IMG/VR virus record: IMGVR_UViG_2579778941_000001
Source: a virus
Lineage: Duplodnaviria > Heunggongvirae > Uroviricota > Caudoviricetes
Direction: 5' to 3' (one strand)
Length of the DNA stretch: 64,000 nt
Shown: in pieces, positions 31,616 through 32,229 of the stretch
How the letters are laid out: each line of letters opens with the position of its first letter
Numbering within the stretch: the first letter of the stretch is position 1
Position numbers and translations under genes: made by a program
Notes under the pieces: generated by a model
The model's database searches: none
What the model was told of the DNA's origin: nothing
Seen by the model: only the letters and a program-made list of their open reading frames with translations

Positions 31616-31745
31616 ATGAATGCGCAGGCTGATGCGCGAAAGACATTGCAGCTATTGCGGAAAAGAGCTGTTCGGCGGGGCAATTAAACGCCCGTGAGAG
31701 TCTGAAATAACCGCAAGCCGGAGATCAGCACCGGTCATCACAACA

Positions 31746-31812
31746 CAACAGGTAAGGGCATTCTCCCTTATGGGGCTTGGCTTAAATGCATCGAGTGCTC
31801 TTACCGTTGTGA
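31746..31812 (+). repeat. Hairpin element C
   Basis: Stem ACAACAGGTAAGGGCATTCTC / GAGTGCTCTTACCGTTGTG with two G-U-compatible substitutions. Confidence 0.6.
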
Positions 31813-31952
31813 TGAAGTGCAGCTCTTTGAAGCAACCAGAAGATAAGCATCTGGCTTCACAACATAAACCGCAGGAACGACCAATAAACGGTAGTCCGTA
31901 TGGAGAACACCCCGTTGAGGAAGAGGCCTGGCCGGAACCGTAACCGGCACTA

Positions 31953-32045
31953 CAACGTTGAGAACACTGGCGTAACGGGGTCATATCCCAATCTACGAAT
32001 AAATGTTGCGTTGCAGCGTGACAACCAGTGTTCTCAACATTGTGG
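31953..32045 (+). repeat. Hairpin element D with nested inner hairpin
   Basis: Stem CAACGTTGAGAACACTGG / CCAGTGTTCTCAACATTG; inner CGTAACGGGGTCATATCCCAATCTACG. Confidence 0.6.
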
Positions 32046-32229
32046 TGAATGCACAGGCTGATGTGCCGCAACTACAGTAGTGCGCGCTTTGCGGGGCTTG
32101 CTACAACCCTGTGTCGGAGTTCAGCACCGACCATCACAGTTTGATTCTCTGGCATGAGCATAACGCTGAAATAAGTCCAGCTTGGTGCGGCCCGATCACC
32201 CGCCGTTAGCTCCACGAAACGGAGCACGT

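Follow-up and report, generated by a model that had tools for sequence, protein, structure and literature searches.

We analysed a 64,000-nucleotide stretch of DNA (the window; IMG/VR record IMGVR_UViG_2579778941_000001) that represents a P1-like phage (Punavirus), and in particular a small hairpin, here called hp1, that occurs twice on its plus strand in a region of repeats upstream of the helicase gene ban. Comparison with homologous sequences from other phages shows that hp1 forms one arm of a multi-helix module that is widespread, and that the loops of hp1 and of a second hairpin, hp2, lying 80–100 nucleotides (nt) downstream, are complementary; both results go beyond the initial annotation of this DNA, which had described the two small hairpins. 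Covariation in its stem strongly supports selection on hp1 pairing, and a structured RNA with such covariation and with invariant loops is, judged from its sequence conservation, almost certainly functional.

Compensatory changes in the stem of hp1

The two copies of hp1, assigned from sequence, minimum free energy (MFE) fold and covariation, are:

31622–31637, plus strand: hp1 of module M1; stem GCGCA (31622–31626), loop GGCTGA (31627–31632), stem TGCGC (31633–31637)
32051–32066, plus strand: hp1 of module M3; stem GCACA (32051–32055), loop GGCTGA (32056–32061), stem TGTGC (32062–32066)

Both 5-bp stems are present exactly as initially claimed, the sequence reading TGCGCAGGCTGATGCGCG at 31621–31638 and TGCACAGGCTGATGTGCC at 32050–32067, and each copy is preceded by GTTGTGrTGAAT (repeat family D1). 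The initial annotation had further pointed to a third base pair changed from G-C to A-T on both arms under an identical loop. This is correct: the sole differences in the 16 nt are a G-to-A change and the C-to-T change of its partner. By a rough estimate, two substitutions in 16 nt would hit one pair and keep its complementarity with a probability of about 0.01–0.02, and the two window copies by themselves are only suggestive of selection on pairing. The GCACA/UGUGC variant was also found in independent IMG/VR contigs, as was GCACA/UGUGU.

Homologues were collected from IMG/VR through three anchors, namely the flanking strand CGTTGTGGTGAATG, the distant 3′ hairpin CCGGAGATCAGCACCGG, and the hp1 stem with a free loop. 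The first of these leaves hp1 unconstrained save for its first base, the second leaves it entirely unconstrained, and the 96 distinct sequences of the resulting alignment (A1) were retrieved with these two anchors only, hp1 itself never serving as one. For sequences obtained with the 3′-hairpin anchor, the 5′ strand of the helix that closes the module was located by complementarity to the 3′ strand, so that closing-helix covariation in that subset arises partly by construction; the occurrence of AAU and hp1 exactly 3 nt past the 5′ closing strand was not built into the collection. A loose regular-expression finder of modules gave mainly false positives, and anchored extraction was used in its place. 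The pairs seen at the five positions of the hp1 stem in A1 were:

Pair 1: GC 68, GU 8, AU 1, CG 1
Pair 2: CG 79, UG 5, AU 2, GC 1, UA 1
Pair 3: GC 75, AU 7, CG 5, GU 3
Pair 4: CG 73, AU 4, UA 4, GC 3, UG 1
Pair 5: AU 82, GC 2, UG 1

Two-sided changes occur at 5/5 pairs of hp1, and also at 9/9 pairs of the closing helix and 3/5 pairs of hp2. The initial annotation had proposed selection on a paired structure and a covariation check in related phages; with all five pairs covarying over the 96 homologues, the proposal is borne out. Over the whole structure 93.6% of cells were paired, compared to 26–52% when partners were slid by 1–3 columns, and none of 500 shuffles reached the observed scores. 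The hp1 stems seen, each with its matching 3′ arm, were GCGCA, GCACA, GCGUA, GCGAA, GAGCA, GUGCA, GCCCA, ACGCA, GCCGG, GGCGG, GCAAA and GCGGA, and all of them carry the loop GGCUGA except GCCGG, which has GACUGA. A stretch of about 36 nt that includes hp1 is about 94% conserved among Taipeivirus UPM 2146, Uetakevirus BUCT554, Webervirus ZCKP8, the lambdoid phage mEp460 and Stx phages.

A scan of bacterial genomes for TGGTGAAT-N5-GGCTGA returned nearly all chance matches and was used as a null control, in which 111 of 120 matches had at most three of five complementary positions. Among the fully paired (5/5) matches, three are genuine modules, from Kosakonia, Massilia and Nitrosospira (stem GCGGA/UCCGC).

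G-U or U-G pairs outnumber A-C or C-A pairs by 12:1 in hp1 and 10:2 in hp2, an excess which indicates that the folded molecule is the plus-strand RNA, not the minus strand or double-stranded DNA. Originally, either an RNA hairpin or a dyad-symmetric protein-binding site had been offered as the object of selection. The first half of that claim stands, on this asymmetry, on the freely varying stems and on the larger covarying fold, and the second half falls. Dyad symmetries bound at the DNA level by a phage or host protein would suit a perfect 5-bp inverted repeat round a conserved 6-bp centre, in a region under C1 control with the P1 C1 operators about 900 bp upstream. However, a dimeric DNA-binding protein would constrain the arms, and here the arms vary freely while the centre is fixed. 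A DNA site is also at odds with the G-U asymmetry, with the nesting of hp1 in a long-range covarying helix whose strands lie 100–200 nt apart, and with an orientation that is always that of the flanking tRNAs and operon. We regard this reading as highly improbable and as effectively excluded.

The same holds for protein coding, whether from two minus-strand open reading frames (ORFs) or from a short peptide encoded on the plus strand from the ATG or GTG of GTGATGAATGCG. The minus-strand ORFs, taken from the P1 and RCS47 annotation, both lie antisense to the modules and to the hairpin units described below:

31652–32071, minus strand: plp, putative lipoprotein ORF
32072–32401, minus strand: upl ORF

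Annotation in both phages speaks for coding, as do matches of upl to PHROG families (function not assigned) and the synonymous nature of the GCG-to-GCA change in the plus-strand frame. But no Pfam or PHROG family matches plp, which overlaps tRNA-Thr in P1, a natural variant (L041) has a stop in the plus-strand frame (GCG TAG), and the other stem changes are non-synonymous on both arms. Moreover, the insert that follows hp1 in the module ranges from 25 to 200 nt without conserving a frame, and substitutions track base pairing, not codons. In P1, plp and upl are probably annotation artefacts.

Architecture of the module and its setting in the ban leader

The modules that carry hp1 as defined above, which we call type I, consist of a 9-bp closing helix, an AAU linker, hp1, an insert, and hp2, which abuts the 3′ closing strand. 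All three helices covary, and the loops of hp1 (GGCUGA) and hp2 (AGAUCAGCA) are near-invariant. The insert between the two hairpins (25–200 nt) is hypervariable in sequence and length and shows no conservation. In the family hp2 reads GCCGG-AGAUCAGCA-CCGGC, with a loop of 9 nt, and nearly all 96 sequences have AAU ahead of hp1 and a gap of 0 nt between hp2 and the 3′ strand. The closing helix of enteric phages is GUUGUGGUG/CACCACAAC; elsewhere its strands are wholly different yet complementary, for example AGUGGUCUG/CAGACCACU or UCUAGUCGG/CCGACUAGA, and in many non-enteric members it runs on into an outer helix, giving about 20 bp in total. MFE folds of M1, M3 and two distant members (L003 and L009) agree on this architecture.

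A covariance model, R1, was built from the mini-modules of A1. Real modules are split into halves by the long insert, and R1 is suited to detection, not to full-length alignment. Over the 64-kb window it found M1, M3 and M2 only, all other matches having E>0.09. Modules alternate in the window with long unit hairpins, as follows:

31529–31609, plus strand: unit B, tRNA-like long hairpin (CACAAC-A-GGUAAGGG ... CCCUUACC) with internal T-arm-like GAGGGUUCGAAUCCCU, directly ahead of M1 (inverted repeat I6)
31610–31744, plus strand: M1, intact type I module (MFE fold; R1 matches at 31610–31652, 32.4 bits, and 31696–31741, 22.7 bits); 5′ strand 31610–31618, AAU 31619–31621, hp1 31622–31637, insert 31638–31716, hp2 GCCGG-AGAUCAGCA-CCGGU 31717–31735, 3′ strand 31736–31744
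31745–31805, plus strand: unit C, hairpin between M1 and M2 (repeat families D2, D4)
31806–31863, plus strand: M2, degenerate mini-module (R1 26.7 bits, E=1.4e-5; repeat families D1, D3)
31948–32047, plus strand: unit D, hairpin with 23-bp arms preceding M3 (inverted repeat I1, 91% complementary)
32039–32140, plus strand: M3, intact type I module (MFE fold; R1 matches at 32039–32078, 29.9 bits, and 32088–32140, 22.7 bits); 5′ strand 32039–32047, AAU 32048–32050, hp1 32051–32066, insert 32067–32112, hp2 GUCGG-AGUUCAGCA-CCGAC 32113–32131, 3′ strand 32132–32140
32234–32299, plus strand: unit E, hairpin preceding M4 (inverted repeat I4)
32299–32424, plus strand: M4, type II module, STnc100-like (sub-threshold RF02076 match; fold z=−3.0)

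M2 retains a closing helix (GUUGUGA/UCACAAC) and hp2 (CCAGA-AGAUAAGCA-UCUGG), its hp1 having decayed. M4 has the closing helix and AAU linker of type I with a different 5′ element (GCGGCUAAGCGCACGCGG), and its hp2, CCGGG-AGGCA-CCCGG, is followed by a U-run. The 3′ arm of unit D overlaps the 5′ strand of the M3 closing helix. Unit stems are conserved (CACAAC-A-GGUAAGrGC ... GCyCUUwCC) and their interiors often hold a T-arm-like GGUUCRANYCC; on this sequence resemblance the units look like decayed or unconventional tRNAs. Unit B combines a canonical T-arm, GAGGGTTCGAATCCCT, with a small stem, GCGA-CGTCGGAGA-TCGC, inside a roughly 16-bp stem in which one A is bulged, and a near-identical unit is found in Enterobacter phage (Uetakevirus) BUCT554 (L004 1428–1510). 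Some P1 relatives have a tRNA-Tyr (Ro157c2YLVW) or a tRNA-Ser (D6) annotated in the unit region.

Reference P1 (L001, NC_005856, about 3330–3420) is without one repeat of about 196 nt that comprises M1 and unit C (window 31604–31800), so that M2 comes directly after unit B. Modules of the lambdoid phages mEp460 and IME207 and of Stx2 phages share 98.5% identity with M1. Cassettes have thus been gained, lost and exchanged, and the pattern suggests recent exchange between P1-like and lambdoid phages through recombination at conserved connector sequences.

The strand upstream of each module can pair either back, closing the preceding unit, or forward with a copy downstream of the module, forming the outer helix. 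In the window the stretches concerned are 31610–31615, 31529–31534 and 31739–31744. The arrangement X - X′ - module - X recurs in distant members with unrelated sequences (L257, L267, L343) and could be a structural switch.

The segment 30700–32460 shares 98.8% identity with Escherichia phage vB_EcoM-813R1 and 98.6% with RCS47. From comparison with annotated P1 and RCS47, by which the layout below was assigned, we place the hairpin region in the mostly untranslated leader of the C1-repressed ban operon:

First in order, ahead of Pban: dmt gene
Near 30700: Pban promoter and Oban operator
Ending in the terminator at 30879–30910, plus strand: dicF-like region
30879–30910, plus strand: strong intrinsic terminator, GCCCATCTTCGGGTGGGC then T7
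31374–31449, plus strand: tRNA-Asn (ARAGORN, Rfam)
31452–31527, plus strand: tRNA-Thr (ARAGORN, Rfam), immediately upstream of unit B
Behind tRNA-Thr and ahead of two small ORFs, plus strand: repeated region of modules and units
Between the repeated region and tRNA-Met: the two small ORFs
33528–33603, plus strand: tRNA-Met, anticodon CAT (ARAGORN, Rfam)
33884 onward: ban helicase gene

The tRNA-Asn and tRNA-Thr genes, the modules and ban are all on the plus strand. The terminator at 30879–30910 sits between Pban and the tRNAs, modules and ban, so expression of the modules and ban from Pban needs read-through or antitermination. The tRNA at 33528–33603 is a tRNA-Met according to ARAGORN and the RCS47 annotation; its homologue in P1 is annotated as tRNA-Ile2, ileX-like and presumably lysidine-modified.

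Two further stretches of the leader are conserved elsewhere. The non-coding sequence between tRNA-Met and ban (about 33605–33790, plus strand) is 79–80% identical to the conserved leader preceding the mEp460 module (L006 2252–2430), which also occurs in Stx2c phages, in vB_EcoP_ZX5 and other phages of about 39 kb, in SPN1S and in BUCT554. The ban leader thus holds a second conserved non-coding region that lacks annotation. At 30920–30990 (plus strand), the block GCGGTTTAGAAACTGACCATTAAAGTAAATGCAAACGATGAT recurs near-verbatim upstream of the unit and module of Klebsiella phages UPM 2146 (L003, about 1285–1330) and ZCKP8 (L005, about 1255–1300); Rfam gave only weak matches there, to permuted tmRNA (24 bits) and beta-tmRNA (14 bits). 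Known RNA families found with Rfam in the window, all on the plus strand, are the C4 antisense RNA (11300–11385), the a1/b1 target (11179–11231) and the sok antitoxin RNA (14834–15008). C4 RNA and its targets belong to the P1 immunity region.

Distribution, neighbourhood and relation to known RNAs

Type I modules are found in enterobacterial, Pseudomonas and betaproteobacterial phages and prophages, in hundreds of unrelated phages of Proteobacteria. M1-like copies are present in 845 of 5,426 complete E. coli genomes, at 715 chromosomal places and 236 on plasmids, and among the 30 records listed no annotated feature overlaps the match. A related variant occurs in 73 Pseudomonas phage records, while the high-GC variant L341 from IMG/VR has no relative among isolated phages. 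Rfam 15 returned no family for type I modules at E<=10 in the window, at gathering score for 15 diverse loci, or at E<=0.1 for four more loci. A full-text literature search for the motif sequences retrieved no paper, and searches on P1 ban-leader RNAs and on tRNA-like phage RNAs yielded nothing relevant.

The nearest known relatives by design are STnc100 and PasD, Hfq-associated small RNAs (sRNAs) of the late region of lambdoid prophages that lie next to Q genes and differ in their seed regions (Zhu, Shabalina and Storz, bioRxiv 10.64898/2026.05.13.724894); that they bind Hfq and base-pair in trans is known from RIL-seq and Hfq co-immunoprecipitation (cited in bioRxiv 10.64898/2026.05.13.724894). 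Module M4 matches the STnc100 model RF02076 at 32302–32422 with 37.8 bits (E=3.2e-6; gathering 47), over model positions 31–147 of 206. M4 also shares the closing helix GUUGYGGUGAAU ... CACCRCAAC and a preceding unit hairpin with M1 and M3. The STnc100 consensus has a closing helix (caUGGUG ... CACCAug), a hairpin of 5 bp with a 6-nt loop 4 nt later, and a terminal hairpin abutting the 3′ strand, a geometry likewise seen in the folds of M1, M3, L003 and L009 and in the covarying helices of A1. Many type I modules adjoin Q genes (at least 11 of 88), as STnc100 and PasD do, whereas the window copies lie in the P1 ban leader, where there is no Q gene. Type I alone has the invariant loops GGCUGA and AGAUCAGCA, complementary to each other; it is also far more widespread (Pseudomonas, Betaproteobacteria) and usually has no terminator of its own. 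The STnc100 model gave no match to M1 or M3 at E<=10, and none of six IMG/VR type II loci matched it at gathering score.

The module also resembles the tRNA-like domain of tmRNA, YrlA and tRNA itself. A rival explanation is a tRNA mimic that serves mainly RNA processing, in which the closing helix and hp2 would act as acceptor stem and T-arm and hp1 as D-arm, and RNase P or similar enzymes would cut at its borders and so free tRNAs, units or mRNA. Each of these RNAs has a terminal helix that stacks directly on a 5-bp hairpin and, past the 5′ strand and a short linker, a further hairpin, just as hp2 abuts the 3′ strand and hp1 comes after 3 nt. A loop-loop contact, proposed here for the module, and a large insertion tolerated between the hairpins, as in tmRNA, are further likenesses. 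Modules share the location and orientation of phage tRNA genes, a same-strand tRNA lying within 1 kb of 33 of 188 modules, some of them abutting; in P1, ZCKP8 and Massilia the distance to tRNAs or tRNA-like units is 0–5 nt. The canonical T-arm of many units and the genuine tRNAs annotated in this region of some P1 relatives also favour a mimic. The P1 C4 RNA is matured by RNase P, which counts for it as well.

On the other hand, the module has no T-loop or D-loop consensus, CCA or discriminator; the hp2 loop is 9 nt long and the stacked helix 14 bp, not 12. ARAGORN found only tRNA-Asn, tRNA-Thr and tRNA-Met in the window and no module, and the Rfam models for tRNA (RF00005), tmRNA and YrlA had no match at 31610–31744 or 32039–32140. 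The outer helix of about 20 bp in many non-enteric members would leave RNase P no free 5′ leader, and most modules lie far from any tRNA (counts below). We judge a tRNA mimic to be improbable.

In Massilia sp. TS11, a betaproteobacterium, a type I module is embedded in a tRNA cluster (L163 4485–4800): one genuine tRNA gene ends about 4 nt ahead of it, and another starts about 70 nt behind it.

To characterize the upstream neighbours, the nearest same-strand ORFs of at least 100 amino acids (88 distinct) were scanned with Pfam; this was needed, as a strict S24-motif search for upstream repressors caught only 3 of 53. S24 CI-type repressors account for 15 of the 88 and Q antiterminators, from three Pfam families, for at least 11. 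In the Q cases unit and module start immediately after a tR′-like terminator; Stx phages carry tRNA genes downstream of Q, after tR′. The module of mEp460, like that of Pseudomonas phage Ab31, stands behind the repressor gene, where the early-left operon begins.

These positions fit a cis-acting leader element that would act on RNA polymerase or Rho as a put-like processive antiterminator or anti-Rho element, its invariant loops contacting the transcription machinery so that lengthy early or late operons, for the most part untranslated, are read to the end. At least 26 of the 88 upstream ORFs are CI-type or Q, which places modules at the starts of pL-type and pR′-type operons, and the position behind the repressor gene is shared by phages of E. 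coli and Pseudomonas. The P1 modules lie within a mostly untranslated leader of about 3 kb from Pban to ban, several modules elsewhere sit just upstream of an intrinsic terminator preceding operon genes, and loop invariance from Klebsiella to Pseudomonas to Nitrosospira hosts fits a universal target such as RNA polymerase. The HK022 put RNAs (putL and putR, RNA-only processive antiterminators) resemble the module in being phage RNA with two conserved stem-loops, in their early-operon start and in their presence in more than one copy per genome. Put RNA, however, is about 70 nt long, with two stem-loops one nucleotide apart and no enclosing helix or variable insert (PMC9378689), and R1 had no match at E<=1 in the HK022 early region (22.0–36.0 kb); identity with put was rejected on both grounds.

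Further points tell against antitermination in general. Where Q is encoded upstream it already supplies this activity, and there the element is found beyond tR′, where only already modified polymerase arrives. P1 has three to four tandem copies, lytic Klebsiella phages have the module beside tRNA genes with no obvious operon start, and the downstream genes are heterogeneous, with 84 clusters among 140 ORFs. We judge this explanation to be rather unlikely.

Other identities were considered; those of a nut site, a hammerhead ribozyme, a C/D box or kink-turn and a gene-specific riboswitch were rejected. The lambdoid nut site of lambda and P22 has a boxB formed by a short stem with a GNRA-like pentaloop, with a CGCUCUUA-like boxA ahead; in the module the loop is the hexamer GGCUGA, the upstream GUUGUGGUGAAU is not boxA, and the module also occurs in non-lambdoid lytic phages without an N-type system. 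The resemblance of M1 (GUGAUGA-AU-[hp1]-GAAAG) to the hammerhead ribozyme core (CUGAUGA ... GAAA, flanking stem II) is coincidental, as the majority of homologues have GUGGUGAAU instead and lack a GAAA behind hp1, and for the same reason a C/D box or kink-turn (RUGAUGA + CUGA) was dismissed. A junction of the purine-riboswitch type shares with the module a closing helix and two hairpins with complementary loops able to dock side by side, but the module is conserved in its loops instead of its junction, has an insert of 25–200 nt and unrelated downstream genes, and nothing indicates a ligand. A gene-specific riboswitch was rejected on the same heterogeneity of the ORFs downstream of the 188 modules.

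A putative kissing-clamped scaffold

The sequences GCUGA in the hp1 loop (GGCUGA) and UCAGC in the hp2 loop (AGAUCAGCA) are complementary in M1, in M3 and in almost every homologue. Complementarity extends to 6 nt when the closing U and A are counted, and in BUCT554 the complete UCAGCC is present. Covariation between the loops is scarce because both are near-invariant. At the single variable loop position, hand-cleaned counts show G-C as the rule, G-U in about 8 modules and A-U in two independent lineages (L359 and L411); Fisher's p is 0.005 on the raw table, which includes chance rows, and is estimated at about 0.04–0.06 after hand cleaning. A kissing interaction between the two loops is likely but unproven.

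The reading that we favour, and hold to be moderately probable from these comparative data, is that the module serves as a kissing-clamped, nuclease-resistant and processable RNA scaffold with hp1 as its architectural first arm. The hp1 and hp2 loops would pair and clamp the module into a compact fold, in which hp2 would stack on the closing helix like the T-arm on the acceptor stem of a tRNA. Such a scaffold could be cut, along with tRNAs, from long early or late phage transcripts and would present the variable insert, by design a relative of the STnc100 and PasD sRNAs. A host component conserved across Proteobacteria probably also recognizes the invariant loops. The part of hp1 would be architectural, its stem pairing and its loop carrying the conserved contact; the stem would tolerate the G-C to A-U swap because it only has to pair.

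Several observations weigh against this scaffold. The kissing contact draws on complementarity and one weakly significant covarying position, where three modules have an uncompensated A-C, two of them from a scan with the hp2 loop fixed. Simple Watson-Crick kissing alone predicts more loop covariation, and the near-invariance of the loops suggests an additional or different partner. Thermodynamic z-scores are unremarkable (−0.47 for M3 and −1.77 for M1). Since the STnc100 model does not recognize type I, only architecture and shared flanks connect the modules with Hfq-dependent sRNAs. No tRNA lies within 1 kb of 155 of the 188 modules, and a clear terminator lies within 150 nt downstream of only 16 of 101 modules, so that a discrete sRNA gene is not the general rule.

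More tentatively, it is possible, if doubtful, that type I is an uncatalogued and horizontally mobile scaffold family in phages of Gamma- and Betaproteobacteria. In a tRNA-like fold clamped by the kissing loops, the two invariant loops would dock on a host machine that is universally conserved (RNA polymerase, RNase P or the ribosome), and the insert would be an exchangeable payload, a regulatory seed or decoy, shuffled between early and late operon leaders. If true, the engineered tRNA scaffold would have a natural counterpart in the module, and phage RNA accessory cassettes (morons) would gain a new class. The loops of the module do not vary among phages infecting Klebsiella, Escherichia, Salmonella, Pseudomonas, Massilia and Nitrosospira, and the module has no Rfam 15 model and was never annotated. 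Its niche is that of phage tRNA genes and of the Stx-phage late leader, next to CI and Q genes, and this niche controls lysogeny, induction and toxin expression. The definition of the family provides a target for work on phage non-coding RNA and would allow better annotation of hundreds of phage and prophage genomes.

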